Source: Escherichia coli (GTDB taxonomy: Bacteria; Pseudomonadota; Gammaproteobacteria; Enterobacterales; Enterobacteriaceae). From it: a stretch of 64,000 nucleotides of DNA. Positions 9,316-51,679 of the stretch are shown here, piece by piece (position 1 is the first letter of the stretch; every line of letters starts with the position of its first letter). The stretch is taken from NCBI RefSeq assembly GCF_030384885.1, contig NZ_CP128614.1; one strand, 5' to 3'. The notes beneath the pieces were generated by a model. That model saw only the letters and a program-made list of their open reading frames with translations, made no database searches and had not been told where the DNA came from. Both the position numbers and the translations under genes were made by a program.

Positions 9316-9316
9316 C

Positions 9317-21491: not shown

Positions 21492-21589
21492 GGCCTTCTT
21501 CTCCTTGCATTTAAGCAGGCAAGAGGCTACGCTGTGTGTGACTAGCATACAGGGGCCTCGGGTTGTACTGACCCCAGAAAGTTGGACAG

Positions 21590-33176: not shown

Positions 33177-33418
33177 TGATGTTTTCCAGAATCACTTTCT
33201 CTTAGAAGATCGATAAAGTCTGTCTATGGGGAGGATCGTCTCCCAGGGTGAAGTCAGTCCACTTCACCGAGTTGCTTCCCCATCGGTGGGTTCTTCAAAA
33301 GGGCAACATGGCCGCCCTCCAGAGGTGAACGTACCTTATGCCTATGTACCAAGCCTTAGATTCCTGATAGTTCTAAGGGCGAGAAATAGCAAACTTACTT
33401 GAAAATTGACTCTGAAAT

Positions 33419-34525
33419 TCAAGCTTCAGCTAGAATAAACTTCCGTTGCTCATCTTCGCATTTATAACATGCGAAATATTTGATTGTTTCCATATCACCA
33501 GTCACATACTCATCACAATGTGGACAGTTAACTGCTGACCATCCTCTATCAAAGCATGAAACACAACTCCACTGACCTTCAATATAGAAAACTGAATTTG
33601 GAGCGTGCTGACATACGTGACAACCAGCGACACATTCGCCACCTTCCTCCCACCAATCATCACCCGTTACATATATGTCGCGACACAATTTTATTAAGAT
33701 ATTTGTGGTGATCTCATGAGCACATTGTGGACATTTATTGATGTCAGGACTGAAAAATTCGAATGGTACTTTACAGTTTGGGCAAGGCAAAGTATCAGTG
33801 ACTTGCTCTACCGCAACGCCCTGCGATTCGCAAACAAGACATTCATAATCATCTCCCCATTTATGAGTATCATTAACTTTACCGGCTTCAAGGCCACATT
33901 GACGGCACTTAACTATTTTAATTTTTTTTAATCTTAAGACGTCAATTTCCTTTGAAAGCTCATTGAATCGGGTGCTGAGGAACTCTTTTTGTTGCAGCAT
34001 TCTCTTATGCACACGCTCAAACTCTTCCTTAAATTTAATAAATTCATCTTTCCATTCAATAGTGAGTAAATTATATAAATGGTGCCATGAAGACCATTGT
34101 TGAGCTACAACCCCTGCTTTATTAGCTTGAGCGCTTGAATATCCAGTGTGTGCAAAGTGAACAATTTGGTTCCTATGCGCACCTAACGTTCTGAACTCAT
34201 CAAGGATACTGTCATCAAGTTTAATGCCAATAACAGTTTTAAGACGTTGAACAGCGTCACTAAAATACACAGAATTAAAGTCACCAACGCTAAATTTTTG
34301 TTTATTAGCTTTGCCAGGATCATCTAATATTAAAGTCCAATGTTCGAGCATTAACCTTGCTTTTAAGAAAAGTTCAATGGCTGTATAGAAATCAACAATC
34401 GAATTTTTGGGTCTTATATTTAAATCATCAATTGACGACTCAAGAAAATCTATAGCATTTATCACTAAAGAATCAAAAAGTTGTTCATTGCTCTGTACTG
34501 TTTGCTTAATGTATGTGCGTGCCAT
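33419..34525 (-). CDS. multi-Cys zinc-ribbon protein, unknown function
   Basis: 368-aa ORF; helical N-terminal half; C-terminal half has at least six CxxC pairs (CRQC, CLVC, CPNC, CPQC, CHVC, CVSC, CPHC, CYKC); very AT-rich coding sequence. Confidence 0.5.
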   Translation of the reverse strand: MARTYIKQTVQSNEQLFDSLVINAIDFLESSIDDLNIRPKNSIVDFYTAIELFLKARLMLEHWTLILDDPGKANKQKFSVGDFNSVYFSDAVQRLKTVIGIKLDDSILDEFRTLGAHRNQIVHFAHTGYSSAQANKAGVVAQQWSSWHHLYNLLTIEWKDEFIKFKEEFERVHKRMLQQKEFLSTRFNELSKEIDVLRLKKIKIVKCRQCGLEAGKVNDTHKWGDDYECLVCESQGVAVEQVTDTLPCPNCKVPFEFFSPDINKCPQCAHEITTNILIKLCRDIYVTGDDWWEEGGECVAGCHVCQHAPNSVFYIEGQWSCVSCFDRGWSAVNCPHCDEYVTGDMETIKYFACYKCEDEQRKFILAEA

Positions 34526-35023
34526 AATGCCTCTTGATTATATTGCCCTTCGAATGTTGAACATTATATCTTTAGAGGCAATATTTTGTCACATCCCACG
34601 ATATTTTGGAGCTGAATTATTTGATCAGGCTTACACAATCTTTCTTCTCTATCCCCATTTACCTTTTGCTCTGTTACCTGCGTTGAAATGGTTGATGACC
34701 CACTAATACTGTACTCTGCCTCTTGTATAAATACATTTCAACATAAGATTGGCAAAGTAATCCTCCATAGTAGCTGCTTGAGTGGTTGATTGTCGGAATA
34801 GTGCATAGCCATTTTGGTCAGCAGAAAGCGCTGTTACCGAATGACTTGATCGTAGTACGTGTCTACTCGCCTACCAGAACTGCTGTCCTCTCATCAACTA
34901 TCTGTATAGGACCATTTGAAACATCAGATATATTTTCAGAAATCTCCTGTTAGCGTGATGGTGACTATCTTAGCTGAGAAGGATTACGAATATATTCTTA
35001 CATCATATTCTTTGAGGTGAAAG

Positions 35024-36247
35024 CTATCTATAATTTTCCAGATAGCAAGTGTCTTTGAATGCATTATAATTGCCAATTTCTTGGTTTATTTCAATTTCAT
35101 AATCTAAGCTGACAATAGGTATTTCAACACCATTTAATAAAAGAGACTCTTGATTTTTCTTCCATTTTTTGTTTTCATTCCATGCTAATTCACTTTTGTT
35201 CTCGGGGTCTCCCATTACTTCAATTTTGATACCTTTTAAAGTAAATGTACAATAAAATGATTTGATGTTTTCTGATGTGGTTTTAAACAACTCCCCTTTG
35301 ATACCAGGGTTGATTAACTTGCATATTTCATTAGCCCCTTTCTCCGTTGTTATGATATCAATATCATTTGCATAAATTTGAACGCCTTGTAAGTACCTAT
35401 TAGCCCCACCAGTTATACTCCAATCCTCCTCAATCGGTTGGAGTAATAATGTTAATTCTGTAATTGCGTCGATCAATTGTTTGCTTTGAAAGTTATTTTT
35501 ATTATAAAGCCGTTGAGCCCAGGTTTGTTTTATTTGCATACTGTGTTTTAAATAAATTGCATTATTAATGCTTGGAGCTGTAAATATCTCATGTTCGTAT
35601 TTAGAATATATGTAAGATAGATATTCTGGTGCTTTGCGATTATTAATCTCTATGAATCCATCTATTTTTTTCATCTCATTGTGGGCGTTGAAAAAACCTG
35701 ACACTTCTGAGAATAAATTATAGAAATTATTTATGACTAGCATCCCAAATATGGCGCGGCTATACTGAAAATCTAAATTATCAGTCAGCGTGGTATACAT
35801 AATAATAATTATACTAACTAGTAGTAGTATTGTTAGTAATAAATAGAATAACTTCTGCTGGAAAGCTTTAATATATAAGATAGAGTTCCAGTATGCATTC
35901 TCTTGTATGAGTGTTATTAACCTCTCTGCACGAAAGCCATTTTTATTTTCCGCATTACCATCAATGTAGAGTCGCTCTCGGTAAAAATTTTCCTCGCCTA
36001 TAATACCTCTCAGCATTTCTAATCTTTTTGTTTCTATAGCCTTAGCTGCATACGAAGTTTTAAAATGCATTGCAAACCAAGTGAGGAGTTGTATTATAAA
36101 CGTGAGGGTTGCAATACCGTAGAGCCAATGAGAATTCAAAAAAATCCCGACGATCGATAAGCAGGAAATCATTAATGTTGAATAACTGATAGACTTAGAT
36201 AAAAAGTCAACTCTATCAAAATAAAAACTACTGTTTTTTGATTCCAT
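35024..36247 (-). CDS. membrane-anchored predicted nucleotidyltransferase (4TM N-terminal domain fused to a Pol-beta-like NTase)
   Basis: 407-aa ORF; about four TM helices in the N-terminal 180 aa; C-terminal ITGGANRYLQGVQIYANDIDI fits the minimal nucleotidyltransferase motif hG[GS]-x(9-13)-DhD; AT-rich. Confidence 0.5.
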   Translation of the reverse strand: MESKNSSFYFDRVDFLSKSISYSTLMISCLSIVGIFLNSHWLYGIATLTFIIQLLTWFAMHFKTSYAAKAIETKRLEMLRGIIGEENFYRERLYIDGNAENKNGFRAERLITLIQENAYWNSILYIKAFQQKLFYLLLTILLLVSIIIIMYTTLTDNLDFQYSRAIFGMLVINNFYNLFSEVSGFFNAHNEMKKIDGFIEINNRKAPEYLSYIYSKYEHEIFTAPSINNAIYLKHSMQIKQTWAQRLYNKNNFQSKQLIDAITELTLLLQPIEEDWSITGGANRYLQGVQIYANDIDIITTEKGANEICKLINPGIKGELFKTTSENIKSFYCTFTLKGIKIEVMGDPENKSELAWNENKKWKKNQESLLLNGVEIPIVSLDYEIEINQEIGNYNAFKDTCYLENYR

Positions 36248-36582: not shown

Positions 36583-37053
36583 TCAATGATTATTTTTTTC
36601 TTCTAATTTTTTTATGACATTCCCATGCTTTTTACCACACCATGCTTGTTTCCTACCCATAATAAGCAAAACCATTGGCTCGGTCGCTTTCAGTCCGGTT
36701 CGCCAAGACCTTAGATCAGTACTTGATGGCTGTGGGAAATCTTCGGGATGCGTATGCCATTCGCCCAAATAGACTAGAAAACCGTCTGATTGCTGAAATA
36801 AGTCATCCACTTTTTGCTGGTGATGTTTGCTTTTTCTTTCTATTCGTAATCGCGATCTTATATCACCTGCGCCTGGTTCTGATATGTGGGTGATGACAAT
36901 GTGTTTCCCACGACGTTCTCCAATAAGGATTCCTCCTGCCTCGGTACTGGCATGATGTAATTGACGATATAAATACAACCGCTGCACAACATCACTCATG
37001 ATGACGACATGATTGTAATCATCATCGATAAAAACTAACTCAGTTATGTTCAT
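36583..37053 (-). CDS. cap3: CBASS Cap3 (JAB/JAMM isopeptidase)
   Basis: 156-aa ORF with EWHTHPEDFPQPSSTD (HxHx7Sx2D JAMM motif); overlaps the cap2 stop by 14 bp. Confidence 0.75.
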   Translation of the reverse strand: MNITELVFIDDDYNHVVIMSDVVQRLYLYRQLHHASTEAGGILIGERRGKHIVITHISEPGAGDIRSRLRIERKSKHHQQKVDDLFQQSDGFLVYLGEWHTHPEDFPQPSSTDLRSWRTGLKATEPMVLLIMGRKQAWCGKKHGNVIKKLEEKNNH

Positions 37054-38809
37054 TGCAGATAGGACAGTTAGGCTGATGTGGCAAAAACTGAGGTTTCAGT
37101 GAACGTCCACCTTCTAACATATGCTCGTTGTAAGTCCATTTGAGGTCAGGCTCAAGAGTACTCAAGACTGCCTGTTGAGCCAAAGATGCCGTTATATTAC
37201 TCACCGCCGCATCATAAGATGTGTATGTGCTACCACAACTTTTATTTTTTTCACTTGAGATATCGAGGTTGTAAAATCGGGAATCGATACCATTATGGTA
37301 TTTTGCTGGATTAGTAACCATACATCCATAGCAGCTTCGGCCATCATCGATTAAAACTTTGGATGCTCGTCCATTACCATCATTGAAGGCGTGGATAATA
37401 ATAGGTCTTTGCTCACAGGGAATCTGTCTTACGATAGCCGCAATACGCTTGGAAACAGGAGGTCGACCTGTTGCATCGATAATAATGTCATATTTTTTCA
37501 TAACATCAATACTGATGGGGAATTGCTTATAAAATCCTTCTACTCTGGTCTGTAAATGCACAGAGTCTTGAAGTTTTGTTGCGAGTGAGAGCGCTTTGGA
37601 CCACCCAAAATCATGTGAAGGTAAAATGTGACGACCAAAATTACTAGGACGGTAGATATCATCATCAAATAAATGCAGTAAACCTTTCCCACAACCGGCA
37701 CCGTTTCGGAGTAACAATTCTGCAATATACCCACCAATGGTTCCGCAACCAACTAAAGCTATACGCTTATCGGATAAGCATTCTTTGCTTCTCCTTTGGG
37801 CATTTCGGCTAAGGAGGGTTGCCATATCAGCGCGAACCACACCCAATCGTTTATATGAGGCGCATACATTTTTACCAGCTAACAATGTGGCAAGTTTGGA
37901 CGTTGATTTTTTAGCTGATCTCTTGTGCCTTCTGAAATCAACAGCGTTAGTATTTAACTCAATATAGATGGCAAATATATCTTGATTGAAAATGTCGAAT
38001 AAAAAAATATATCTTTTCTTCCCCTCTGTTGTGATGTAGTGAACCACTCTGTCCCTGGCATTATGGTCCGCATTTTCTAGCCAGTCCAGTAATTCGCGGA
38101 ATGAAGTCGGTGGCCATTTCATCCCAGCAAGACGATTAGGGTTTACAGAAATATAATGAGTGTTGATAGAATAATTTTTCAAAGATTCTTGACGAAGGTA
38201 TCTTTGATTAAGCCATTTTTTTAAAATGGTTTCAGAGTCCTCGGGAGAGGATTCTTGGACAGTTATATATTCTAGCCTGGGAGAACCATCAGGAAATGTT
38301 GACTCTGAAAACAGTGTCTTAAGTCTGATCCCGCGGCTTGCTTTTGATAAAATATATAAACTATCACTAGGTCGCCAGTAAGTTGCAAATTCACCTTCGA
38401 GTTCTCTCTTATCATTCAGGCCATTAGTAGCGGCTAAAACTGAATTAATCAGTGTTCGGTGAATCTGGGCATCGACTTCTTTGTACGTACCCTCAAGGTT
38501 GTTTGGATCCCAATCAGCTTCCAACTGCTCTACATAACAGAGAATTCCTTCTTGGCTTATGTGAGGCATAAGGCGATCTCTGAACTTTTCAGGCAGATCA
38601 ACTATGCAAGCTAATGGCAGTTCCGTAAAAGGATCTGGCCGAATAACTAGTGCTACATTGAAATTTCCGGCTTCGGTTTCATATTCTTTCGTATAATAGC
38701 CTTTCAGGCGTTCCTGACTGTGTAGGAACGCCTTTTCAGGAAGTTTGCGGGCTAGCGTATAGCGATACCCGCACTCTATCATCATTTTATGGAGCCTTCC
38801 TTCCTCCAT
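37040..38809 (-). CDS. cap2: CBASS Cap2 (E1/E2 ubiquitin-like conjugation enzyme fusion)
   Basis: 589-aa ORF; Rossmann/ThiF-like ALVGCGTIGGYIAELLLRNGAG in the C-terminal half; start overlaps the CD-NTase stop. Confidence 0.75.
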   Translation of the reverse strand: MEEGRLHKMMIECGYRYTLARKLPEKAFLHSQERLKGYYTKEYETEAGNFNVALVIRPDPFTELPLACIVDLPEKFRDRLMPHISQEGILCYVEQLEADWDPNNLEGTYKEVDAQIHRTLINSVLAATNGLNDKRELEGEFATYWRPSDSLYILSKASRGIRLKTLFSESTFPDGSPRLEYITVQESSPEDSETILKKWLNQRYLRQESLKNYSINTHYISVNPNRLAGMKWPPTSFRELLDWLENADHNARDRVVHYITTEGKKRYIFLFDIFNQDIFAIYIELNTNAVDFRRHKRSAKKSTSKLATLLAGKNVCASYKRLGVVRADMATLLSRNAQRRSKECLSDKRIALVGCGTIGGYIAELLLRNGAGCGKGLLHLFDDDIYRPSNFGRHILPSHDFGWSKALSLATKLQDSVHLQTRVEGFYKQFPISIDVMKKYDIIIDATGRPPVSKRIAAIVRQIPCEQRPIIIHAFNDGNGRASKVLIDDGRSCYGCMVTNPAKYHNGIDSRFYNLDISSEKNKSCGSTYTSYDAAVSNITASLAQQAVLSTLEPDLKWTYNEHMLEGGRSLKPQFLPHQPNCPICNEHN

Positions 38810-40110
38810 CAGCCGCTTACCATCGTGGTGTTAATTTTTACAGGCGCCTGCTCCTTAGACGGGGAGATTTGAAATGCAGGAGCCGCAGCAATTGAAGTTA
38901 TTAACGAGGCATTAGTTACTCGTTTTCCAAACGCATTGTTTATCTTACGTAATGCTTCTTCCCTGCTACTTGAACTCTCTGCATCAAGCAAAATCCCCTC
39001 TAAATTTCTCATGGTTTCAACGATGGTTCTCTGATGTACGTTATGATCGCATTCGGCAGGGAAAAGTAACTTTTCATCAGTATCGTCGGGACTTTCCAGA
39101 CCGCGACAGAATTCATTAGGTAGTAATCTTGCAACTAGTTTCATCGTCCCTGTGAGGTCTGAACCATTATGTGCTTCTCTGTCGAGGATGTTTACAACTG
39201 CAGCCATCAGGCTAATAGATGAAGGACCTCCCACTTCCCATTGGGCATCTCTCCAGGCCTTCATAAAGCGGCAAATTGAACGGAGATGACCGCCAATACG
39301 CTTGCAACTATCATTAAACCAATCTTCAACAATTTTGGGGTCGCTGATCGACCACCTTCTTGCACCCTGACGCAGCGCTAAATTAACTTTGTCAGGTTCT
39401 ACTAGATATGCCTCGCGCATATCCATGTTTGCTGATAAAGACTCGAACATGGAGTCGGCACTTTTTATGATGTGTGCTGAATCGGCTGCAGTTTGTTTGG
39501 TCTGAAATTGCTCTTTGGGGATCGCATACATCGGTACGTCGATGTGTGTTTTCTCGTGAGGAATTTTGATGCGTCCGCAGGTGTTTTTTTCTTCATATAC
39601 CCATCCATCGTTTTCAGCCTCTAACGATTTCAGTGACGTATCAACGAGCAGAAGAAGTAAGGTGTGCCCAATACTGGGTTCGGATTCAAAGACCGTCATT
39701 GGCATGTAGGTGCCGTCATCGATATCCATTTCCTGACCCGGGTGAAAAGGTCTGTTTAACGTATCGTATTGAAAACTCCCTTGGGTCCAGAAGCGAGGTT
39801 GAAATTTGATGAAGTCATCACGAGCTACATCTTCCATTTCAAAAATGAGTCGAGCGAGAGTCTCACGGTCTGAGGGAGAGAGGTAGCGAACATTAGTTTG
39901 CTCCAGTTTAAATCTAACGCTTTCAAGCGTCAGAGTTTGCTTTCTGGCGTCTGTAGCAATTTGACGAGCTTCTTTAAACACATCCCTCGTTCTTTCACGG
40001 ACTTTCTGGCGAAGTGCTTTCAGTTTGTCGGATTCAGTCTTACCCAATTTTAGTTTACTGATTAAGCCATCCACACTATGGCTGTAGTAATTGTTAAAAT
40101 CCCAACGCAT
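38809..40110 (-). CDS. dncV: CD-NTase, DncV-like cyclic dinucleotide synthase
   Basis: 433-aa ORF; NTase motif QGSFQYDTLNRPFHPGQEMDIDDG; long stretches match Vibrio cholerae DncV as recalled (MRxxWNFxxYY N-terminus, RFWTQGSFQYDTLNRPF, C-terminal NxAFGxRVTN...STMVSG). Confidence 0.85.
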   Translation of the reverse strand: MRWDFNNYYSHSVDGLISKLKLGKTESDKLKALRQKVRERTRDVFKEARQIATDARKQTLTLESVRFKLEQTNVRYLSPSDRETLARLIFEMEDVARDDFIKFQPRFWTQGSFQYDTLNRPFHPGQEMDIDDGTYMPMTVFESEPSIGHTLLLLLVDTSLKSLEAENDGWVYEEKNTCGRIKIPHEKTHIDVPMYAIPKEQFQTKQTAADSAHIIKSADSMFESLSANMDMREAYLVEPDKVNLALRQGARRWSISDPKIVEDWFNDSCKRIGGHLRSICRFMKAWRDAQWEVGGPSSISLMAAVVNILDREAHNGSDLTGTMKLVARLLPNEFCRGLESPDDTDEKLLFPAECDHNVHQRTIVETMRNLEGILLDAESSSSREEALRKINNAFGKRVTNASLITSIAAAPAFQISPSKEQAPVKINTTMVSG

Positions 40111-41180
40111 CAGTGGATCTCCTGCGCATTCATGCGCTTAAAGGGTTTTGCGGGAGTAGTGAAAAAATTCTTAAGCTTCTGATCTTGAGCGAACTCAACA
40201 TTGGCGAGCTGCCTTCCCCTTGCGCTTAAATTTTCAAGGGAACTCTTCGTGGCATTATCCAGGGTGATATCACTGGCTGCTTCATTGGGGATAATTTCAT
40301 CCAGGTAGATGTAGTTATCCACCGCGTCATGGAGCATAAGCTCACGCTGTAGCATATTTTTATGAAGATGCTGGTTAGCTGTCATGGTTGTAAGCACCAG
40401 CCGTTTTCCCATACCCCAGAGACGACAGTAGCCATTCCACCATGTTTTGCTCAACAACTTTGGACTAAGTGAATACTCTTCACCAACAGTACCGATATTA
40501 AGTATATGTATGTCTTTATGGGTGACGCTGAAGTCAGAATTCATATCCCTGAAAACTTCCAGAAGTCCTATGTAGCTGGGGTTGTTTGCGACCAGACCAC
40601 CATCGGCAAAATATGCGCGGAGATCCTCACAATAGTGTGGGGAAAAATACGTTGGCGCGGCTGAGGTTGCCAGTGCGGCATCTATCAATTTAAGAGGCCC
40701 ATCACGAGTAAAATCTGGGTTGTGTGGTGTCTTGAAAAACTGCGGTTTTCCTGTTGAAAGGTTTACTGCCGGGATCATTACTCGCCGGGTTAGGTCATTG
40801 AATGTGGTTTCAGCCCCAATCATTTCTTGAATTGTTTCGCGAAGAGGATGGCTGCGGTAGATAGGAGCACAAAGTGATCTAAGCAAGTTGGTCAGGGACC
40901 ATCTTTTGGGAAAAATGTCATTCGCCCTATCGAAGAACACTCGTTCCAGCTCACGGGCACTTTTTCCTGTAGCAAGGCCGAGAGCTAATATGCCGCCTAT
41001 TGATGTCCCTGTAATGAGGTCAAAATAATCGCCAATTTTAATATCCTGATTAGGGTATTTGCTGGCAAGTATCCTCTCAATCTCAGAAAGGACACTGATC
41101 GTAAACATTCCCCTGGCCCCCCCGCCATTAAGACTTAGTATCCGCACGCCATAGTGATTTCCTGCACTTATGTCAGACAT
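40110..41180 (-). CDS. capV: CBASS effector CapV (patatin-like phospholipase)
   Basis: 356-aa ORF with patatin motifs GGGARG (oxyanion), GTSIGG (GxSxG nucleophile) and DGG; stop overlaps the dncV start. Confidence 0.85.
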   Translation of the reverse strand: MSDISAGNHYGVRILSLNGGGARGMFTISVLSEIERILASKYPNQDIKIGDYFDLITGTSIGGILALGLATGKSARELERVFFDRANDIFPKRWSLTNLLRSLCAPIYRSHPLRETIQEMIGAETTFNDLTRRVMIPAVNLSTGKPQFFKTPHNPDFTRDGPLKLIDAALATSAAPTYFSPHYCEDLRAYFADGGLVANNPSYIGLLEVFRDMNSDFSVTHKDIHILNIGTVGEEYSLSPKLLSKTWWNGYCRLWGMGKRLVLTTMTANQHLHKNMLQRELMLHDAVDNYIYLDEIIPNEAASDITLDNATKSSLENLSARGRQLANVEFAQDQKLKNFFTTPAKPFKRMNAQEIH

Positions 41181-41630
41181 AGCCAGCTCCCCTCGGAAAG
41201 ATAGCTATAAGATATGTCCGCTTTTGTAGTTTTCAATGTACAAATAACCAGCAAATTTGAAATATGGTTAAAATAACTGCGTTATGGAAATTAATTGAAT
41301 ATTAATTCTTATTTTTGTTTTCCTGATGGAATTAAAATCTAAGTATGTCATTTTCTGGCTAATTTTACGAAAGGAAAATCCATGGCACATGCAGCCATCA
41401 CCTCACTCAGTCTTGGCTACATGAAACAATCTTGGTGTTATCACCGGTGAGCAAGGAATTGAGAGCTAAGCCTTGAAACAGAGGCATATGTGGGAAAGTC
41501 AGTGGAAAAAATGATGGATCCTAATCTCCCTGTTCAATCGTAACGAATTATCGCCCTTTACTCTTTTCCAGATCCGACTTGGATGTTGTTCATCCAGGCC
41601 GCTAAACGTTGCTGTCGCCGGGCCATCTCG

Positions 41631-41927
41631 TCACCATTTCTCCTGTCTGGCGGGCAAATTTTCCAAAGATTTATTCTCTCCCGACGGCATCATTTCTGAT
41701 GAATTTGCCATCGATGAAAGGCTGATTTCTACTCCCAGCACGGTAAACACTTTGAACAGGCGTTCAATACTCGCACTGGCTGGATTGGCCTCCAGACGAG
41801 CATAGGTTTGCTGGGTCACACCTAACCTTTCAGAGACGTCTTTTTGCGTCAGCCCATTCGCTTTACGAAAGCCAAGCAGCATTGGACGCAATTGGGTAAG
41901 TATTTTTATCGGATAAACATTTTTCAT
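41631..41927 (-). CDS. HipB-like XRE-family HTH regulator
   Basis: 98-aa ORF; LGFRKANGLTQKDVSERLGVTQQTYARLEANPASASIERLFKVFTVLGVEISL aligns with E. coli HipB as recalled; no hipA-like gene follows; lies 450 bp upstream of capV on the same strand. Confidence 0.6.
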   Translation of the reverse strand: MKNVYPIKILTQLRPMLLGFRKANGLTQKDVSERLGVTQQTYARLEANPASASIERLFKVFTVLGVEISLSSMANSSEMMPSGENKSLENLPARQEKW

Positions 41928-42201
41928 CGTGGGTAGGCCTCTATATGGTTTGATACACCCTGTAAGCTGTGTTTACATAATTACACCTTAAAAGCTGTTA
42001 AATCAAGATTACAGCTTAAAAGCTGTTCAAAAGTCATAACAGCCTGTTGCTATTAATATGGACAGGAAGAATACGTAGCACTGGCAGACGCAAACCAGAC
42101 TTGGATTGATAACGGCCACTGCTGTTTATTGTTGAATCCGTCTAACCTAATTCCAGTTCAACTATTGAAATAGAACCGGCATAGCGGATACATTACGCAC
42201 G

Positions 42202-42600
42202 TTGTTACCTTGTATCATCAGGATGCCGTTGACTGTGTTTATCAGCCGTGAAGTCATTTCCAGAATCGTGCTTATCATCATGGCTGTTGCCGTGCTGAGC
42301 AGTTCGCTTATGGTAAAACCACAGGCTGTCTACAATCTCCAGGATACAACATCCATCAGTGACCATCAGCACGACAGCGATGAACCGCTGAATGAGCACG
42401 ATCCGTTACAGTTCCACTCGCACGGTAATGTGCATCACCTCAATGCCGATCATTCCCACGATCTGAACAAACTCTTCACGCTGACTGCTTTGCAGGCCTG
42501 GAACGCAGGCATGCGGGCGACGTTCGCGCTAAGTTCAGAACAAATCCTGCGGGTCCCCCAGGCGACCCCCGAACGCCCTCCGAGATCCCTGATTGCGTAA
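42202..42600 (+). CDS. His-rich secreted or membrane protein (possible metal binding)
   Basis: 132-aa ORF with a hydrophobic N-terminus and His/Asp-rich segment HQHDSDEPLNEHDPLQFHSHGNVHHLNADHSHD. Confidence 0.35.
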   Translation: MLPCIIRMPLTVFISREVISRIVLIIMAVAVLSSSLMVKPQAVYNLQDTTSISDHQHDSDEPLNEHDPLQFHSHGNVHHLNADHSHDLNKLFTLTALQAWNAGMRATFALSSEQILRVPQATPERPPRSLIA

Positions 42601-42643
42601 TAACTTCCGTTAATTCGTTATTATTCAATTTGTAAGGGTTTTT

Positions 42644-43043
42644 ATGAATACCAGCCTCGATATACAGGGCCGGTTGAACGGTGGCCTGCTTTCAGCTCAG
42701 GCGCGTTCGGCTTGTCTGTTTTTCCTGTTGTTACTGCTTTTCTACAGCCAGGGCGCGTATGCGCACGACGTGGCGGAGGGCGACAAAGGGTACATCCAGG
42801 AAATCACCGGGATTATCGTCAATGCACAAAGGAGCGTGGGTAACGCTGGAAGGTAATGTTATCAGCCAGCAGGATGAGTGGTACACCTTCCGTGATCCAA
42901 CCGGCACCATCAAAGTGCGCATTCCTCAGAAGGTCTGGAACGGGCAGCACTTCGATGCTCAGGATTTGGTGCGGGTGAGTGGGCAGGTAATTCATGAGAA
43001 TGGTGCTACGAGCCTTGATGTAGGTGTGATTAGCAAGCCCTGA
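42644..43043 (+). pseudogene. YgiW/YdeI (BOF, OB-fold) family periplasmic protein, frameshifted
   Basis: signal peptide in frame 1 (42644..42856) and the OB-fold body (AWVTLEGNVISQQDEWYTFRDPTGTIKVRIP...) in another frame (to 43043); frames switch near 42820-42850. Confidence 0.5.
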
Positions 43044-43235
43044 ATTCCATCAAAACAAGCGGTACTTATAATAACCTTCATCCCGAGCGTGATAGCGCAT
43101 CACAACTTCGAGACTTTCTTCAAGGAATATATACGTCTGGGCATAGGACTCTCCATTATGAGAGTCCAACTAATGAGGGCAATGTATCGATCTGAGTATG
43201 AGATTGCTTTGTGGACTAAGGCAGAAATGAGCCTT

Positions 43236-43547
43236 CTAAGGCTGATCCTTCTTCAAGATTTTGATGAGTTCGATTTGCTGTTGTTCAGACATGTTAGCGA
43301 TCAGGCGAGCTAACTCTGCAGTCGTTTCGTTCTCGCAAAAGAAGTAGTTGATCGGTACCCCAAGTTCATCAGCCATACGCTTAAGAGTATCAATGTCAGG
43401 AGTATGTCTCCCCTTCTCGTAGTGGTTCATGCGGCCACTCGCTGAACTTGGTTCCATGCCAATTCGGATACCCAATTCTTTCTGAGTGATCCCGGCATAC
43501 GTTCTGGCAGCCTTGAGCCTGTCAGGTATCGGATTTGGGTGAGCCAC
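43236..43547 (-). CDS. XRE-family HTH transcriptional regulator
   Basis: 103-aa ORF with HTH LKAARTYAGITQKELGIRIGMEPSSASGRMNHYEKG; divergent from the helicase operon. Confidence 0.6.
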   Translation of the reverse strand: MAHPNPIPDRLKAARTYAGITQKELGIRIGMEPSSASGRMNHYEKGRHTPDIDTLKRMADELGVPINYFFCENETTAELARLIANMSEQQQIELIKILKKDQP

Positions 43548-43572
43548 GAAGTCATCATCATTGCCTTAGAGT

Positions 43573-43623
43573 ACTTAGATTGTCTAAGTTTCGTTGGTTT
43601 CTGTATACTTAGCAATTCTAAGT
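43573..43623. promoter_or_regulatory. two 17-bp palindromic operators in the divergent promoter region
   Basis: ACTTAGAttgTCTAAGT (43573-43589) and ACTTAGcaattCTAAGT (43607-43623), same half-sites, 17 bp apart, between the XRE gene and the helicase-operon start. Confidence 0.6.
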
Positions 43624-43646
43624 TTACTGATTTGGAAGTTTTAACA

Positions 43647-44216
43647 ATGAAGTCTGCAGTGAAGTTGCACCCTTATATTTATAATTTGTTGATAGAAAGA
43701 GATTTTGATGAGTTCGGTGCTATCCATCTCAGGGACGCTTTGCTGAAGATTACAGATTCATATGCTGATGTAACTGAAGCCAGAAAATTCATCCGCCGAC
43801 AACTTATCCGGCTGGAGGCATTGGGCTTCATTTTTAAAATTGAAAATAGCAGTGGGCGTCCGAAGATCCTGTACAAGAAAACGGAAAGCTTCTATTCAAC
43901 GACTTTCATACCAAGAAAATTGCCAAGTAACTCGCGCCTGGCTGCTGTGCCCGAAAATGTGAAACTACACGTTTTGGATGTCGATCTGTTCTTAATGGAC
44001 CTGACAAAAGAAAAAACTGTCCATGAGGCCAAACTTGCCGTCATTCTGAGTGAAATTGAAGAGTACCAGTCTCTTATGGAGCGTTTTCCCAGTAGACGGA
44101 GCTGCTTTATTGAACTCCATCAGCACGCAAAAAATCAGTCCGCCGCTTTGCTTGGCAGGGTTACTGCTTTATCGAAAGTGCTAGGTCAGCTTAGCGATGG
44201 GGATTGCGCATGCTGA
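43647..44216 (+). CDS. hypothetical protein, first gene of the helicase operon
   Basis: listed ORF 43539..44216; likely start is ATG at 43647 (MKSAVKL..., RBS-like GGAAG upstream) since the upstream part overlaps the divergent XRE gene; no catalytic motif recognised; 13-bp overlap with the helicase gene. Confidence 0.5.
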   Translation: MKSAVKLHPYIYNLLIERDFDEFGAIHLRDALLKITDSYADVTEARKFIRRQLIRLEALGFIFKIENSSGRPKILYKKTESFYSTTFIPRKLPSNSRLAAVPENVKLHVLDVDLFLMDLTKEKTVHEAKLAVILSEIEEYQSLMERFPSRRSCFIELHQHAKNQSAALLGRVTALSKVLGQLSDGDCAC

Positions 44217-45598
44217 GGGAGTGGCAGAAAGAATGCTCTGAAGCAGCGCTAGAAAAATATCAATCTGGATCGCCGCACTTTCTATGTCTTGCCAGTCCTG
44301 GTGCAGGAAAAACCGTGATGGCTGCTGAAGTTGCCAGGAAAATGCTGGAGCTGAAACTAGTAGATCTCATCCTATGCTTTGCACCTTCATCTGTGGTGGT
44401 TGCATCCATTGAAAGTACTTTCTCCCATATTCTTCAAAGGAACTTTAATGGTGGTCTTGGTGCAGTAGGTGCTGCGTATACTTATCATAGCTTGATGTAT
44501 TTCGATAAAAGCTTCTGGAAGTCTTTGCAGATGCATCGGGTATTAGTTATTTTCGACGAAATCCATCATTGTTCTGGCGATTCGCTGGATAATGCTAATG
44601 TGTGGGGCGGGGAAATCCTTTCTCAAGTTCAGCAATGTGCCAGTTACTCTTTGGCACTAACAGGGACTCCATGGCGAACTGATAGTACTCCTATAGTGCT
44701 CTCAAATTACACTGATCCGGATGGGGAGATCTGTTGTGACTATGTATATGGACTACATGAGGCTATTGTCGATGGTGTTTGTCGTAAACCTAAAATCGCC
44801 TTGATAAACAGCAATAATTTAGTATATTCATCAAAGGATAATGTTCAGTTTTTTGGTTCCATCACAGATTTCCTGAGTGAAACCGTTGCTTCGTATCAAT
44901 CAATAATTTGGCATCCAGAAGCAATGAAGTATGTACTAGAAGCTGGATGTAAAAAACTTAACGAAATACGCAAAGTTAATTCTGATGCGGGTGGTTTAGT
45001 TGTTGCTTCTTCAGTCGAGCATGCATATAAGCTACTGAATATTTTGGAAAAAGAGTTTGACCAAACAGCGATAATTGTGACGTACCACGATCGAGATGCT
45101 TTGGCTAAGATTGGATATTATCGGCAATCAACTACAGAATGGATTGTTAGCGTTGGTATGATTAGTGAGGGCACAGATATCCCCAGGCTACAGGTCTGCT
45201 GCCATTTGAGTTCTGTCAAAACAGAACTTTACTTCAGACAAGTATTGGGCAGGATATTACGGGTGAATCAGAGTGAAAATCAGGAAGCCTGGTTATTTAC
45301 AATGGCTACAAATGAACTGACATTATTCTCAAACAGATTGGCCGAAGATTTACCTGAAGATTATAAAGTTATGCAACAACAATCTGATGATTGGTCATTC
45401 CCTACAATTGATTCTCAGTCTATGCCTCCAGAGTTTGTGCGGAAAAATGGTATATCTAAAATAAAAGAGATTGATTTAGAAATGGATATTGGTGAAATAA
45501 CTACATCGTCACCTACGATTTCAAGTCAAACAAAACAACTAAAAATGGGCTCAATGCATCAACAAGTGATAGATGCATTTTTATTTTCAATTATTTAA
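44204..45598 (+). CDS. SF2 DExH-box helicase
   Basis: 464-aa ORF with Walker A ASPGAGKT, motif II IFDEIHH, LTGTPWR, and motif VI FRQVLGRILR. Confidence 0.65.
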   Translation: MRMLREWQKECSEAALEKYQSGSPHFLCLASPGAGKTVMAAEVARKMLELKLVDLILCFAPSSVVVASIESTFSHILQRNFNGGLGAVGAAYTYHSLMYFDKSFWKSLQMHRVLVIFDEIHHCSGDSLDNANVWGGEILSQVQQCASYSLALTGTPWRTDSTPIVLSNYTDPDGEICCDYVYGLHEAIVDGVCRKPKIALINSNNLVYSSKDNVQFFGSITDFLSETVASYQSIIWHPEAMKYVLEAGCKKLNEIRKVNSDAGGLVVASSVEHAYKLLNILEKEFDQTAIIVTYHDRDALAKIGYYRQSTTEWIVSVGMISEGTDIPRLQVCCHLSSVKTELYFRQVLGRILRVNQSENQEAWLFTMATNELTLFSNRLAEDLPEDYKVMQQQSDDWSFPTIDSQSMPPEFVRKNGISKIKEIDLEMDIGEITTSSPTISSQTKQLKMGSMHQQVIDAFLFSII

Positions 45599-45992: not shown

Positions 45993-46433
45993 TTATTTTA
46001 TTCTTACTATCTGGCCTTGTTTTAAAGCTTTTATCTCTTGTTCCAGCGCTTCAATACGTGAACGTGCAACCCTCAGCGCATGGGAGAGCTGATGATGTTC
46101 AGCCGCCATCACTTCCAGACGACGTTTCATATCAGATGCTTTTACACGGTACTGAATTTTCACTTTACGCTCTTGGTTAAATTTATGTCGCAGGGCTTCC
46201 TGTGACTGATGAGTTAGCCTGCCCTGAGGGGATATTTTTAACCGCAGAATTTCCTCCTGGACGCGTGACTTAAATGCCCCGTAGTAGTAACAGGTTCCGT
46301 TTCCCAGCCCGGCCTCCTCTTCAACAGCACGCACCGACAACTTTCGGTTGTCAGGGATACGTTTTGTCTGACCATCAAGGATCCGTTGTAGTGCAGCTTC
46401 AAGTTTAAGGAGTGTATTTTCTGATTTGCTCAT
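45993..46433 (-). CDS. small coiled-coil protein downstream of the recombinase genes
   Basis: 146-aa ORF overlapping the stop of the 720-aa gene by 4 bp. Confidence 0.45.
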   Translation of the reverse strand: MSKSENTLLKLEAALQRILDGQTKRIPDNRKLSVRAVEEEAGLGNGTCYYYGAFKSRVQEEILRLKISPQGRLTHQSQEALRHKFNQERKVKIQYRVKASDMKRRLEVMAAEHHQLSHALRVARSRIEALEQEIKALKQGQIVRIK

Positions 46434-48592
46434 ACGCCTGTCACCTTAATGGGATGTTCATATGTGTCATAGCCAATCCCATGATCCTGCATAACCCGTT
46501 CCGCAGCCCGGATTTGAGTGATACAGTGGGCATACTCACTGATGCTTAGATCCGTCTGTTGCTGAAGATACATTATCAAAGCATTATGACGTTGCTGCCA
46601 CCACATGGCCTTATCCGTATCGATAATGCTTCCACCGCTACGACAATCCACGCAGAATGCAGGGTTGACCACACCATCCATATCGCAGTCATAGCCGTTT
46701 TTGCAGTAACTATGTAGCGTTCCATGCAAAGTAAGTCGTTTTTCCCTGACCAGTCGATAGAGATTATCCCAGCTACTGTAGATCACAGGCTTATCATTAC
46801 GCATAGCTAGAATGGCTTTGCCAAAACTTCCGCTGAGTTGACTATCCCCGTTAAACCAGCTGTCAAAAAGACTAGTTGTCTGTTCGAGCCTTGCTTCATT
46901 CAGTAATTTAATCAGTTCGCTGTCCACCTGTATTGATTGTAGCCGTGCTTCAACAGCACCGTTCCCATACCATTCACTCATTCGCAGGCTGAGGTGTTTA
47001 AACTGTTGTTTGATTGCGATGGGGTGTCCGAGCTGGTTACGTACGGCAAAGCAGGCGAAAGTTCTTCGAAACTGATGGGTTAAAAGGGGCCAGGCCTCTC
47101 CTGTTCTGATCTTATCTTCTATAGCCCCCCTGTCCCGAGGGTTAAGCTGACGGCACTCTGCGAGTGCCTGTTTATCAACAATAGCACCCACATGTCTGGA
47201 AAAATTTTTTAAACGGTCGTTCCACTTGCTGCGTGAAATGAGGACAGGCAGGTTTTTTCTTTGGTACTGGCTGAGCCACAGATTTCCTGCTGTCTCAGTA
47301 AGCGTATCAGACTGCCCTGGGTCGTTGCTGTGAACCGCTATTTTTAACAGCTGTTCACGAGCACACGCGCTGAGAGCCGTCGCAAGCGATATGGCTTTTT
47401 CAACAATAGGGCTTGCCAGCCATTCTTCATTTTTTTTCCCGGCAGCCAGTTTGTGGGTTGCTGCGCTTACCGAGTGAAAATCCTGTCCATTAATGGTGTA
47501 GGTGTGAAAACTGTCCACATGCAATTCAAATATTTCGCTGACTCTCATTCCTGTGAAAGCACCACAACAAATAAAACAGGCTGCCTGAAGTTGAGCACGA
47601 AAACTGACGAGCCAGTTACCGTCTGCTGCGCTACTGGGCAGGAGTCCTGTTCCGGTGAGATGGTTTTTGATTAGGGTATTTTGCGACCGGGGTGTCGCTT
47701 TATTAATTTCTTCTACATATTCTTTTGAACATAATTTCCCCTGTCCGTTAGTCAGCCATGTCCACTTACCTGTAAGTATTTTATAGTCAACAACGGCACG
47801 CCCGATATCATAATTAGACTGCAGTTCACGTTCTAGCTGGGCTAGTGTTTCTCTGTGGGGCCATGCAAGCTCGACAAGTCTAACGGCTTCTCCATAGAGT
47901 ATATTTGCTATTGCCTGGGGGATGGCCAGGGTTTGCCTGTGTTCTGCTTTATTTTTAGCTGACAGTTTTTTGGCTGTCTGTTTGTAGTTCAGCTGTGGCA
48001 GGTCAAGCTGGAAAGGAAGCCATGAATTTAGTCTTTCGACTGACTGTAGTGCAGAGAAAATCAATTCAACAGTTCGCTTACTAAAGGCTTCACGTTCGAT
48101 ATCGTTTTGTAGCTTTTGCCATATCTCGGGTTTATTGAAGTCAGACAGGCACGTGCTGCCACTATGCAAAAGCGTTAATAAACTCTTTTTTAACCCTAAA
48201 TTGAATCGGGAGGTCAGTGTTGACAGCTTGCAGTCTTTTCCGGAGTGATAATTTTGCTCAAATATCCATCCATATACGATAAGCTTCGCCTGAAGGAGAA
48301 GCGCCGGAGCGGACTCCAAATAGGTAAAGTTAAATTCACGCTGGTTTTTATCCGTTCCCTTATCTGAAGCAAAGGGGCTACAGTCCCAGCAATTTTGACC
48401 AAAATATGCTCGCGTGATGTTATGTTTATCGATACATATTGGGAGCTTATCGAGCGCAGACCAGTTTTTGTTTTTTATCAGAAGTAAAATATCTTCTGTG
48501 GCTCCATACGTCAGAGCGTCTTTATGAAATGAGTTCAACAGAATAGCCATAGTGATCCTTATGTCATATCTGTGCTTTGCACATCTGACCAC
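46430..48592 (-). CDS. tyrosine-recombinase-like protein (third of three tandem genes)
   Basis: 720-aa ORF with AFTGMRVSEIFEL (box I Arg) and LTHQFRRTFACFAV (HxxR) in the C-terminal half. Confidence 0.55.
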   Translation of the reverse strand: MVRCAKHRYDIRITMAILLNSFHKDALTYGATEDILLLIKNKNWSALDKLPICIDKHNITRAYFGQNCWDCSPFASDKGTDKNQREFNFTYLESAPALLLQAKLIVYGWIFEQNYHSGKDCKLSTLTSRFNLGLKKSLLTLLHSGSTCLSDFNKPEIWQKLQNDIEREAFSKRTVELIFSALQSVERLNSWLPFQLDLPQLNYKQTAKKLSAKNKAEHRQTLAIPQAIANILYGEAVRLVELAWPHRETLAQLERELQSNYDIGRAVVDYKILTGKWTWLTNGQGKLCSKEYVEEINKATPRSQNTLIKNHLTGTGLLPSSAADGNWLVSFRAQLQAACFICCGAFTGMRVSEIFELHVDSFHTYTINGQDFHSVSAATHKLAAGKKNEEWLASPIVEKAISLATALSACAREQLLKIAVHSNDPGQSDTLTETAGNLWLSQYQRKNLPVLISRSKWNDRLKNFSRHVGAIVDKQALAECRQLNPRDRGAIEDKIRTGEAWPLLTHQFRRTFACFAVRNQLGHPIAIKQQFKHLSLRMSEWYGNGAVEARLQSIQVDSELIKLLNEARLEQTTSLFDSWFNGDSQLSGSFGKAILAMRNDKPVIYSSWDNLYRLVREKRLTLHGTLHSYCKNGYDCDMDGVVNPAFCVDCRSGGSIIDTDKAMWWQQRHNALIMYLQQQTDLSISEYAHCITQIRAAERVMQDHGIGYDTYEHPIKVTGV

Positions 48593-50334
48593 AGGGGATG
48601 TCGTCCTTCATCAGCAAGTTTTCGACGGGCATGTTGTAGTGTTTTTTGATTCAGTAATTTCAGCCTGCTATCAATGTTTACGATGGTCTGGCCAAAGTTT
48701 TTTGTGTAATGGGCTTTATCCAGGTGAAGGTATTGTGATTCTTCCAGATATTCACGGAAGCTTAACACGCACCATAAATCCGTTACTGATTCGACCAGAA
48801 CCTGATGTTTGCAACTCCAGCAGTTTAACAGGTCAGCACAAGCCAGCGTTTCTTCCGGGGGGATCAGCCCGTTTCTCCTGGCCCGGGAAGTGAACATCGT
48901 GGCCATTGTACCAGCCGTGTCGTTACAATAACTTCCATGGGAGTTTCGTACGGGAGGCGATGCTCTTCTGACATAGGCCTCATATGCCAGCACGCTGACC
49001 TTTTGTGCTTCACGTACTTTCTGTTTTGCAGATTCAATACTCTGCCTGTCCCGGACAACCTGTTCCAGTGTCTGGCTGGTATCCCGGTTCATTTGATTGT
49101 TCTCGTAGGGGTTACCATCAGAATATGCCTGACGGATAGTTTCGGGGGTATTATCAAGCAGTAGTGCAGCCTCGACCGGGCCCTTCAGCGCCAGTGTCAG
49201 ATGACTGCCGGTGGCCCGAAAGCGCCTGGTGACCGGCCACAGCCTTTGCCCTAAGTCGTCTGTCATGGGGAAGTGTACAGAGAGCCAGCTACTTTTGAAG
49301 TCATTCAGCAGGCAGGAACTCATCATCTGGACGCTTTTTTTCCGATGACTATAGGTCGGTAAGAGCAGGCCATCCGGGCCGGGGTCTAACAACGTTGACG
49401 CAGTAATGAGCTGGTCAAAAAACTGTGTTGCGTATTTGGGTATTTCCAGCCGATTGTTGTCACCTATCTCAACAGAGATTGTTTTAAATGCCCGGCGCTT
49501 AAAGGCTGGCATCTGATGCCAGTTATCTGATGGTGTATGGCTGCTGAGTGTCGGTCTTTTTAATGTGTACAGGATGGAGCTGTTGCTCCATGTGTAATAA
49601 CTGAGCAGGTATGCGGCTGCATAAAATAATTTTGATACACCGCTGCGTACAGGATACGTTTTCCCTTTCCAGCAAAAAGTCATTGTTGCTGTGATACCGC
49701 TGGCTTTGATATGTGAATCTGGGTCAAGAATAAACTGGGAGTAAAGTTGCCTGAACAGTCCTCTTAGTAAAGGGAGTAATTTTTTCAGGTCACCATCGCT
49801 ATATCCTCGTGTGGGCTCTGATTGTGTATTTCCCGGGTTTTTAAACCCTGACGTAAACTTTGTACTCCGCCCCATCCAGTTGTATAAGGTTGTCAGGTCT
49901 GCCTTTATCCTGGAGGCTGTGCTGTCTTTGATTTCGCCCCTCCTTTGACGAAGTAAATGACATTTCAACTCTCTGATGAACGTGCTCTCAGACAGGGGGA
50001 TAAGTGCTGGCACCTGACTGTCACAGAAAGTAAAATGCTTTCTTGCAGCATTAAAAATATTATACTTTGTTGCAGGTGTGACATCTTCATGGCCAGTAAT
50101 TGCAATAAACAGTGACTGTACAATGTCATCCCGTGCCAGTAATTGCTCATCCCCCTGTTTTATCAGGTTGGTTTTGGGTATGCCCTTATAGCGAAAGCGG
50201 TTAAAATCTAACAGGGTATGAGCATTGGCGCCATTGCGTATTGGTATACAGAGGTGTTCAACCCAGGGCGTTGTGAGTTTTAATTTGCTGCTCATACTTT
50301 CACTCCAGTAGTGCTCTGTGCATAATTTCATCAA
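48559..50334 (-). CDS. recombinase-module protein (second of three)
   Basis: 591-aa ORF overlapping both neighbours; catalytic motifs not clearly readable. Confidence 0.45.
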   Translation of the reverse strand: MMKLCTEHYWSESMSSKLKLTTPWVEHLCIPIRNGANAHTLLDFNRFRYKGIPKTNLIKQGDEQLLARDDIVQSLFIAITGHEDVTPATKYNIFNAARKHFTFCDSQVPALIPLSESTFIRELKCHLLRQRRGEIKDSTASRIKADLTTLYNWMGRSTKFTSGFKNPGNTQSEPTRGYSDGDLKKLLPLLRGLFRQLYSQFILDPDSHIKASGITATMTFCWKGKTYPVRSGVSKLFYAAAYLLSYYTWSNSSILYTLKRPTLSSHTPSDNWHQMPAFKRRAFKTISVEIGDNNRLEIPKYATQFFDQLITASTLLDPGPDGLLLPTYSHRKKSVQMMSSCLLNDFKSSWLSVHFPMTDDLGQRLWPVTRRFRATGSHLTLALKGPVEAALLLDNTPETIRQAYSDGNPYENNQMNRDTSQTLEQVVRDRQSIESAKQKVREAQKVSVLAYEAYVRRASPPVRNSHGSYCNDTAGTMATMFTSRARRNGLIPPEETLACADLLNCWSCKHQVLVESVTDLWCVLSFREYLEESQYLHLDKAHYTKNFGQTIVNIDSRLKLLNQKTLQHARRKLADEGRHPLWSDVQSTDMT

Positions 50335-51679
50335 GCATAGAGATTTTTTCTTTCAGGGCTTCTTTAGTTTTTAGATAGCGTAAATACTTCCATGTTGTTG
50401 ATTCATTTTTATGCCCCATCCATTGCATCAGCAGGCTGAGTGCATCGGCAGGCTCTATGCCCGCAGTAAGTAGACTGTACAGGCGATACGTTGCATAACT
50501 GCACCTCAGGTCATGAAACTTATGGTCAAATGCGATCCCTGAATTAATCATTTTTTTTCGCAATTCACCAAATCGGGCACCCGTGCTCTGTGGGGTACAG
50601 GGGGAGCCCTGCTGACTAATAAATAAGGGTTCATTTTGAATGGCAGAAACTAAAGATTCAGATCTGATTTTGTCTGAAAAGAGTGTTCCGGGTACGGTTT
50701 TTATTTCTTGCTGACCCATTTTTAACATCGCTTTAATACGCATCTGTAATTTATCAAAGCGGGTCATTCTTCTTTCGCTAATGGCATAGTGCTGTAATTT
50801 ATCTAAAAGAGTATTAGTTATTTCAATCGTTCTTGTTTTATTATATTTAGTGGGTACACCGTTACTAGGTCCAATAGTGATTTCGTAGTGGGTACGTGAT
50901 TCGGTTCTTTGTACAGCCTGATTTAACGCAGTTAAGGTAAATCCTGTGGCTTCTTCAATTCTGAGCCCACATTGTGCTGCCAGCAGACAAATAAGCTGCA
51001 TTTCAACTGAGGTCTGGCTAAGATGGATTGCAAATTCTGTAAGCATTGTTTGCGAAAGTGGTGATAATCTGCGAATATTCAGACTGTTAGAGTCTTTAGG
51101 GACCCTGATACGTAAATCCGTTGTCTGTACGAAAAATTTTGGCTTCATATGTGCCAGTATGTCGTTATTTCTGAATCTGACAAATTCTATGTCAAAGGGT
51201 TTGTTTGTTTCCGTTACCGGAAAGTAGTGCTCATACGCTGCCCAGAGATAGAACTGTACAAGATGACATATATAGGTATTAGCCGTGGAAAAAGCGATTT
51301 CTCCAGTTTTGACCTTTTTTAGCAGCCCATCATTACGGTAGCGATAGGCAGGTTTTAATGCTTTTACTGCAGGAAAGTTATCCCATGCAAGTTCTTCAGA
51401 CTCCAAAAAGCACCAGTAAAATTTTAACGCTCTTGCATAAGAGCTAAGGTTTTCCAGTCTTTTTTCAGCTTTGAGATGTATAAGCCATTGATTTACAGGT
51501 TCTATATAATTACCATCATAACCATACAATGTAGGAAGTGGACCCACATTTCGTCCCCCCCTGAATTCAATCGATTCATCTGTAGTAATGATATCACCAC
51601 CAATAAATACATCTGCTGAGTTGAGTAAATAAGCCAAGAATGCAGACCTCCAATGGTTGTAAACTTCTGCCATGCTCAT
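50300..51679 (-). CDS. tyrosine recombinase / integrase (first of three)
   Basis: 459-aa ORF with CGLRIEEATG (box I Arg), HKFHDLRCSYATY (HxxR) and C-terminal WKYLRYLK Tyr region. Confidence 0.65.
   Translation of the reverse strand: MSMAEVYNHWRSAFLAYLLNSADVFIGGDIITTDESIEFRGGRNVGPLPTLYGYDGNYIEPVNQWLIHLKAEKRLENLSSYARALKFYWCFLESEELAWDNFPAVKALKPAYRYRNDGLLKKVKTGEIAFSTANTYICHLVQFYLWAAYEHYFPVTETNKPFDIEFVRFRNNDILAHMKPKFFVQTTDLRIRVPKDSNSLNIRRLSPLSQTMLTEFAIHLSQTSVEMQLICLLAAQCGLRIEEATGFTLTALNQAVQRTESRTHYEITIGPSNGVPTKYNKTRTIEITNTLLDKLQHYAISERRMTRFDKLQMRIKAMLKMGQQEIKTVPGTLFSDKIRSESLVSAIQNEPLFISQQGSPCTPQSTGARFGELRKKMINSGIAFDHKFHDLRCSYATYRLYSLLTAGIEPADALSLLMQWMGHKNESTTWKYLRYLKTKEALKEKISMLDEIMHRALLE

Follow-up and report, generated by a model that had tools for sequence, protein, structure and literature searches.

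The window analyzed here is a 64,000-nucleotide stretch of Escherichia coli DNA (NZ_CP128614.1) in which an accessory island of about 20 kb splits an IncHI2-type plasmid backbone. A 400-bp feature at positions 42644-43043 contains two overlapping open frames. The ORF list and a three-frame map place a 70-amino acid ORF in frame 0, running from the ATG at 42644 to a stop codon at 42854-42856, with a signal-peptide-like leader at its N-terminus (...ACLFFLLLLLFYSQGAYA|HD). Frame +1 is open from 42678 to a stop codon at 43041-43043, and it is this frame that shows BOF/OB-fold homology, which continues up to the stop. The 74 C-terminal residues of frame +1 matched the Pfam BOF profile PF04076 with an E value of 5.8e-17 and 62.1 bits (cut-off 25.8); the match covered profile positions 29-103 of 103, the first 28 positions being missing. 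The frame +1 product also matched the NCBIfam NirD/YgiW/YdeI profile NF033674 (65.9 bits, cut-off 35; positions 37-110 of 111), and the OB-fold part scored 66.5 bits with the full-length profile TIGR00156, under the cut-off of 108.15. No Pfam or NCBIfam match was obtained for the 70-amino acid ORF of frame 0. These data confirmed two points of the initial annotation, namely that the leader and the OB-fold body are in different frames and that the 3′ part belongs to the BOF/YgiW/YdeI family, within which it can be specified as ncrY/nirD.

The left half of the feature (42644-42815, top strand) corresponds to codons 1-57 of a 245-codon gene of the HupE/UreJ family and encodes the leader peptide and approximately 17 mature residues. 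In BLASTP comparison with the 245-amino acid HupE/UreJ protein of plasmid pEnt261 (L003), 51 of the 57 residues were identical to its residues 1-57 (89%, E 7e-27), and at the DNA level the left half is 93-94% identical to Klebsiella and Enterobacter plasmid copies. The HupE_UreJ_2 domain of Pfam occupies residues 62-213 of the intact homologue, so that the membrane domain is wholly deleted from the window. The absence of a profile match for the 70-amino acid ORF is explained by the fact that the fragment stops ahead of the start of this domain. Beyond codon 57 the hupE' frame continues for 13 out-of-frame codons to the stop at 42854-42856. Intact NcrY could not be aligned with these 57 codons, even when E values up to 100 were allowed. 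The leader is thus not the signal peptide of a BOF gene, as had been proposed; the true NcrY residues 1-70, with their leader, are missing.

The right half (42816-43043, top strand) corresponds to codons 71-146 of a 146-codon nickel-resistance OB-fold (BOF) gene, ncrY (nirD), and is in frame +1 relative to hupE'. In BLASTP comparison with the NirD/YgiW/YdeI protein of pEnt261, 69 of 76 residues were identical to its residues 71-146 (91%, E 2e-50). The DNA between 42822 and 43049 matched 548 records; in those listed, the genes concerned lie on the same plasmids, are 83-90% identical and encode a "NirD/YgiW/YdeI family stress tolerance protein". Genes matching the right half in RefSeq E. coli plasmids are annotated as "nickel resistance OB fold protein NcrY". 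The start codon, the leader and the part encoding the first 28 BOF profile positions are absent from 'ncrY. A complete BOF protein, with its own start, a signal peptide and a full OB fold in one frame, is therefore not encoded here, the homology to NcrY starting only at residue 71 of 146. Since both halves have strong homologues elsewhere, the pattern is not due to chance.

In intact relatives both parents belong to one module of ten genes, arranged in the order small hypothetical gene, hupE/ureJ, four unnamed genes, ncrA, ncrB, ncrC and ncrY/nirD. The same ten genes in the same order were found in all three plasmids examined in full, pEnt261, an Enterobacter hormaechei IncHI2A plasmid (L009) and an E. 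coli plasmid (L010), with unrelated flanks. In a fourth plasmid, pAP855 (L001), the order is the same through ncrC, where the retrieved stretch ends. The ncrA product is an MFS protein, NcrB a metal-sensing repressor and NcrC an RcnA-like protein; in pAP855 two of the unnamed genes bear annotations, "transmembrane anchor protein" and "Tat pathway signal sequence". The ncrABCY genes are an experimentally described nickel-resistance determinant of Leptospirillum ferriphilum UBK03, in which NcrA and NcrC serve efflux and NcrB is the regulator (PMC3046157). In the enterobacterial plasmid copies ncrA, ncrB/nirB and ncrC are named by AMRFinderPlus in PLSDB, and the OB-fold gene is called NirD-family or NcrY by PGAP. 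A literature search found nothing on nirABCD.

The distance between the hupE start and the ncrY stop is 7,410, 7,407 and 7,412 bp in the three plasmids with different flanks, versus 400 bp in the window. In all four intact modules examined the two parts belong to distinct genes, each read in one frame, with about 7 kb between them. When the ten proteins of the module were used in tblastn searches of the whole 64-kb window, only the first gene (intact), hupE' and 'ncrY were matched; the four unnamed proteins, NcrA, NcrB and NcrC of pEnt261 had no match at E <= 1e-3.

The six genes that precede ncrABCY do so every time (L001 6135-10290, L003 9077-13232, L009 1397-5567 and L010 1404-5562). They encode a His-rich small protein, HupE/UreJ, the "transmembrane anchor" protein, a His-rich protein of 123 amino acids, a 306-amino acid protein with a sub-threshold methyltransferase match and a 252-amino acid "Tat signal" protein, and only HupE/UreJ has a significant Pfam family. 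This set is a conserved, uncharacterised metal-related module.

The point at which the two homologies meet was located by three-way alignment. BLAST comparison of the window with L003 gave two collinear pieces, 42159-42821 aligned to 9001-9663 and 42814-43049 aligned to 16663-16901. The joint lies at 42815|42816, with a 2-bp TA microhomology at 42814-42815: the hupE side reads GGGATTA|ACATCA, the ncrY side GGCCGTA|TCGTCA and the window GGGATTATCGTCA. Over a longer distance the hupE side is ...CACCGGGATTA|ACATCATCC..., the ncrY side ...CAGGCCGTA|TCGTCAATGCAC... and the window ...CACCGGGATTATCGTCAATGCAC.... A switch of frame does exist near the place where it had been reported (42820-42850), although its actual position is 5 nt to the left of that range. 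The two coding parts are joined out of frame, since the offset between 42644 and 42816 is 172 nt, one more than a multiple of 3. The sequence of the left breakpoint is identical in four intact relatives, and the right one is also found in the nearest relative, L003, in the coordinates of which the loss amounts to about 7,007 bp (approximately 7.0 kb). Identity to the window reaches 93.7% on the left and 90.4% on the right in the nearest intact modules. As the searches yielded no intact ancestor exceeding 95% identity on both flanks, the exact sequence of the breakpoints before the deletion and the extent of the microhomology are those suggested by diverged relatives. No homopolymer run of at least 5 bases is present in 42780-42870, and there is no X XXY YYZ slippery heptamer in frame 0 between 42644 and 42856.

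An identical joint, with identical junction sequence, is carried by pMY490-mcr-9 (NZ_CP053569.1), an IncHI2A plasmid of Enterobacter cloacae from chicken. A megablast search of PLSDB with window positions 42100-43300 returned 291 plasmid records; among the matches listed one record alone covered the whole query, and the remaining ones broke off at window positions 42811-42821, under genes annotated as "hypothetical protein" and then "HupE/UreJ family protein". Over these 1,201 bp the window and pMY490-mcr-9 differ by 10 substitutions and no indels, and over 24 kb (32000-56000) they are 99.1% identical. Seven of the substitutions fall inside the 400 bp, and by reading of the two copies five of these seven bases change three residues of the retained frames (R>C, D>G and I>L) and the last residue (P>L). 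The presence of the same joint in two diverged plasmids implies that the scar was inherited from their common ancestor. A search for the exact joint-spanning 20-mer in one genome per species gave two matches, in unrelated MAGs and limited to those 20 nt, where about 0.54 were expected by chance; judged by this 20-mer, the one-genome-per-species set appears to hold no further carrier of the scar. Nothing on pMY490-mcr-9 was found in the literature.

The feature is part of a 1.7-kb block (41534-43229) that has a type II CBASS operon on one side and an HTH/helicase module on the other. This block is extra in comparison with a Klebsiella oxytoca plasmid (L004 11555-11615), where the CBASS phospholipase gene adjoins the HTH/hypothetical/helicase module. 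It consists wholly of what remains of a hipBA-ncr region similar to the one in pAP855: hipA', an orphan hipB, the small gene that is still intact, hupE', 'ncrY and the end of an IS3 element. Window positions 41537-42821 align to L001 5434-6721 with 91% identity. The hipA' relic (41537-41626, bottom strand) is the 5′ end of a HipA-family toxin gene, which in L001 occupies 4199-5524 of the minus strand. It is interrupted by a stop after 22 codons, its translation being MARRQQRLAAWMNNIQVGSGKE* in the window versus MVRKQQRLAIWMNGIQVGFWEK... in L001, and homology ends at about 41537. The adjacent orphan gene for a hipB-like HTH antitoxin of 98 amino acids (41631-41927, bottom strand) is apparently intact in the ORF list. 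It matched the NCBIfam HipB profile NF007271 with E 1.2e-10, under the curated cut-off, and its counterpart in L001, annotated as a helix-turn-helix regulator, adjoins hipA. The intact gene at 42223-42600 (top strand) is the first gene of the ten-gene ncr-linked module and encodes a small His-rich hypothetical protein: in a tblastn search the 121-amino acid protein of L003 gave a full-length match at 42235-42597 with 95% identity. Its homologue in pMY490-mcr-9 (L002 6124-6501) is annotated as a hypothetical CDS, and no Pfam or NCBIfam family was found for the protein. The left-end relic of an IS3-family element (43071-43187, bottom strand) consists of a terminal repeat and about 25 orfA codons. 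Over 119 nt it is 76% identical to an IS3-family transposase gene of L006, at the 5′ end of that gene and the terminus upstream of it, the minus-strand peptide being ...TYIFLEESLEVVMRYHARDEGY compared with MSRRKYTFEQRLEVVMHYLATDEGY of IS3.

Elsewhere in the window, a 90-bp sequence at 21500-21589 shows 81% identity to L001 3921-4012, which in pAP855 separates hipA from an IS3-family transposase gene, and it may be another small relic of a pAP855-like region.

The CBASS operon beside the block is complete (36583-41180, bottom strand) and 94% identical to those of K. oxytoca and Klebsiella michiganensis plasmids. It encodes a patatin-like phospholipase CapV (40110-41180), a DncV-like cGAMP synthase (38809-40110), an E2/E1 (Prok-E2_B + ThiF) fusion (37040-38809) and a JAB deubiquitinase-like protein (36583-37053), all on the bottom strand. 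The block lies exactly between capV and an upstream HTH gene of the same strand (43236-43547); these two genes are about 430 bp apart in L004. The HTH gene product matched the PADLOC "control protein" profile (E 3.8e-25) and capH (E 4e-9), and a CapH-like regulator or promoter may have been cut off from CBASS by the insertion. On the top strand, 43539-45598 encodes a 225-amino acid protein without a family and an overlapping ResIII/DEAD-like helicase of 464 amino acids with weak PADLOC PbeA matches. The pair, conserved beside CBASS in L004, is a possible defence or mobile-element module. Further on, four consecutive and partly overlapping bottom-strand ORFs (45993-51679) encode proteins of 146, 720, 591 and 459 amino acids. 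A tyrosine recombinase (Phage_integrase, E 2e-9) is the product of the last ORF, and the other three had no Pfam or PADLOC match. On the other side of CBASS, the bottom strand of 31221-36247 encodes a 651-amino acid protein with a DndC/PAPS-reductase-like region, a 368-amino acid protein matching PADLOC HEC-08/DUF3644 (E 6e-70) and a 407-amino acid protein with a weak nucleotidyltransferase (Aminoglyc_resit) C-terminus, which adjoins CBASS.

The initial annotation had read the feature as a single BOF (YgiW/YdeI-like) gene, the signal peptide and OB-fold body of which were split by a recent indel, taken here as one of 1-2 bp. The overlap of two frames, one of which carries a leader and the other the BOF domain, agrees with such a reading, as does the total of 400 bp, which is about the size of a normal BOF gene of 130-146 codons. 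However, the leader half, without detectable similarity to the N-terminus of intact NcrY, is a HupE/UreJ sequence, the DNA homology of each half ends abruptly at 42815-42821, the first 28 BOF profile positions are lacking and the switch coincides with neither a homopolymer nor a slippery site. A BOF gene is indeed disrupted and non-functional here, but two different genes are involved and not one. Alignment to intact homologues, which had been suggested as a check, assigned the two sides of the switch to two different genes, with 7,007 bp between their breakpoints in L003, and with the pieces about 7.0 kb and seven genes apart in intact relatives a small indel does not account for the feature. 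We attach practically no credence to the single-gene explanation, and restoration of a BOF gene by a single-base correction is impossible. A sequencing error had been offered as the other cause, and a broader form of this idea is an assembly artefact, either a chimeric join or a collapse losing 7 kb. The window's own assembly at the joint is supported by its agreement with a single other record. This second plasmid, sequenced and deposited independently, has exactly the same joint even though it differs at 10 of 1,201 positions here, with no indel, and by about 0.9% over 24 kb, and breakpoints that share only 2 bp provide no repeat able to collapse an assembly. An artefact is thus very improbable.

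The deletion could also have made a functional chimeric gene, for which three routes are conceivable: translation of the 120-codon ORF of frame +1 (GTG 42681 to 43043), in which the overprinted N-terminus RRVRLVCFSCCYCFSTARA would provide the truncated OB fold with a new hydrophobic leader; initiation at an internal ATG, 42822; or +1 recoding that joins the HupE leader to the OB fold. The 120-amino acid ORF is present in the ORF list, and with the upstream gene and intergenic region intact, transcription through the scar is plausible. A promoter/terminator scan of 41900-43300 had no discriminating value, with 4 promoter-like sites versus 2.2 expected. Against a functional chimera, there is no canonical slippery heptamer, no good Shine-Dalgarno sequence could be read ahead of GTG 42681 or ATG 42822, the OB fold is without its first 28 profile positions, and the substitutions between the two known copies, a small sample, are as expected for a relic. 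We consider a functional chimera highly unlikely. It is similarly hard to believe that an accidental new gene is expressed and was retained in two diverged plasmids as useful, whether as the 120-amino acid protein (a Cys-rich hydrophobic N-terminus from the alternative frame of the hupE leader plus the truncated OB fold) or as a secreted 70-amino acid HupE-leader peptide. A programmed ribosomal frameshift was rejected, there being no slippery heptamer and the homologues keeping the parts as separate genes. An ancestral short form, into which 7 kb was inserted later, was rejected because both flanking frames are truncated inside conserved proteins and domains. An IS-mediated adjacent deletion is unsupported at 42815|42816: the IS3 relic is 28 bp past the ncrY stop and not at the joint. 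This relic may instead explain the right-hand truncation of the whole block.

We are therefore left in little doubt that the feature is the scar of an internal deletion of about 7.0 kb in a plasmid-borne nickel-resistance module and not one frameshifted gene. The deletion fused hupE/ureJ after codon 57 to codon 71 of ncrY, in frame +1 and with a 2-bp TA microhomology. With it went all of the HupE_UreJ_2 membrane domain, the four genes without a name, ncrA and ncrC for efflux, ncrB for the repressor and, from ncrY, the start codon, the leader and the beginning of the OB fold. Neither of the two parental genes remains functional. The likely mechanism is illegitimate (microhomology) recombination or replication slippage, favoured over transposition because the joint contains no insertion-sequence DNA and the microhomology is minimal. 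From the surviving hupE start at most a leader-bearing peptide of 70 amino acids could be made. With ncrA, ncrB, ncrC and other genes missing from the window, this plasmid segment should, on gene content, be unable to specify ncr-type nickel resistance, and the plasmid would no longer confer it. The scar is probably carried passively in the 1.7-kb relic block, within a defence island of an IncHI2-type plasmid.

The significance of the scar is mainly for annotation, with little for biology. The appropriate annotation is a deletion with a gene fragment on either side, hupE/ureJ' and 'ncrY, and neither a frameshifted YgiW/YdeI label nor a "repair" of the frame is warranted. Since ncrA, ncrB and ncrC are gone, nickel resistance could be wrongly predicted for this plasmid by a screen for resistance genes that counts the ncrY fragment. 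As both plasmids carry the scar, it can in addition serve as a convenient marker of lineage that ties the window plasmid to pMY490-mcr-9.

Compared with ncrABCY (nirABCD), the window is without ncrA, ncrB, ncrC and the first 70 codons of ncrY, and the determinant is deleted. With the HupE/UreJ gene (PF13795), which is linked upstream of ncrABCY in Klebsiella and Enterobacter plasmids, it shares a collinear start codon, 57 codons, the upstream intergenic region and the preceding gene, at 89-95% identity, and unlike intact copies it has none of the Pfam domain (residues 62-213). With plasmid NirD/NcrY it shares the segment 42816-43043, ending at the same stop with 91% protein identity to residues 71-146. 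The fragment passes the Pfam and NCBIfam domain cut-offs for the BOF family (PF04076; YgiW and YdeI of E. coli) but, unlike complete BOF proteins, it has no native start codon or signal peptide and covers profile positions 29-103 only. Deletion-generated chimeric pseudogenes are a general class in plasmid accessory regions. The scar has nothing that distinguishes it from them; it is an ordinary deletion pseudogene in a decayed accessory region and shares with that class the abrupt loss of homology on both sides, the 2-bp microhomology, the out-of-frame fusion and the nearby truncated genes and IS relic.
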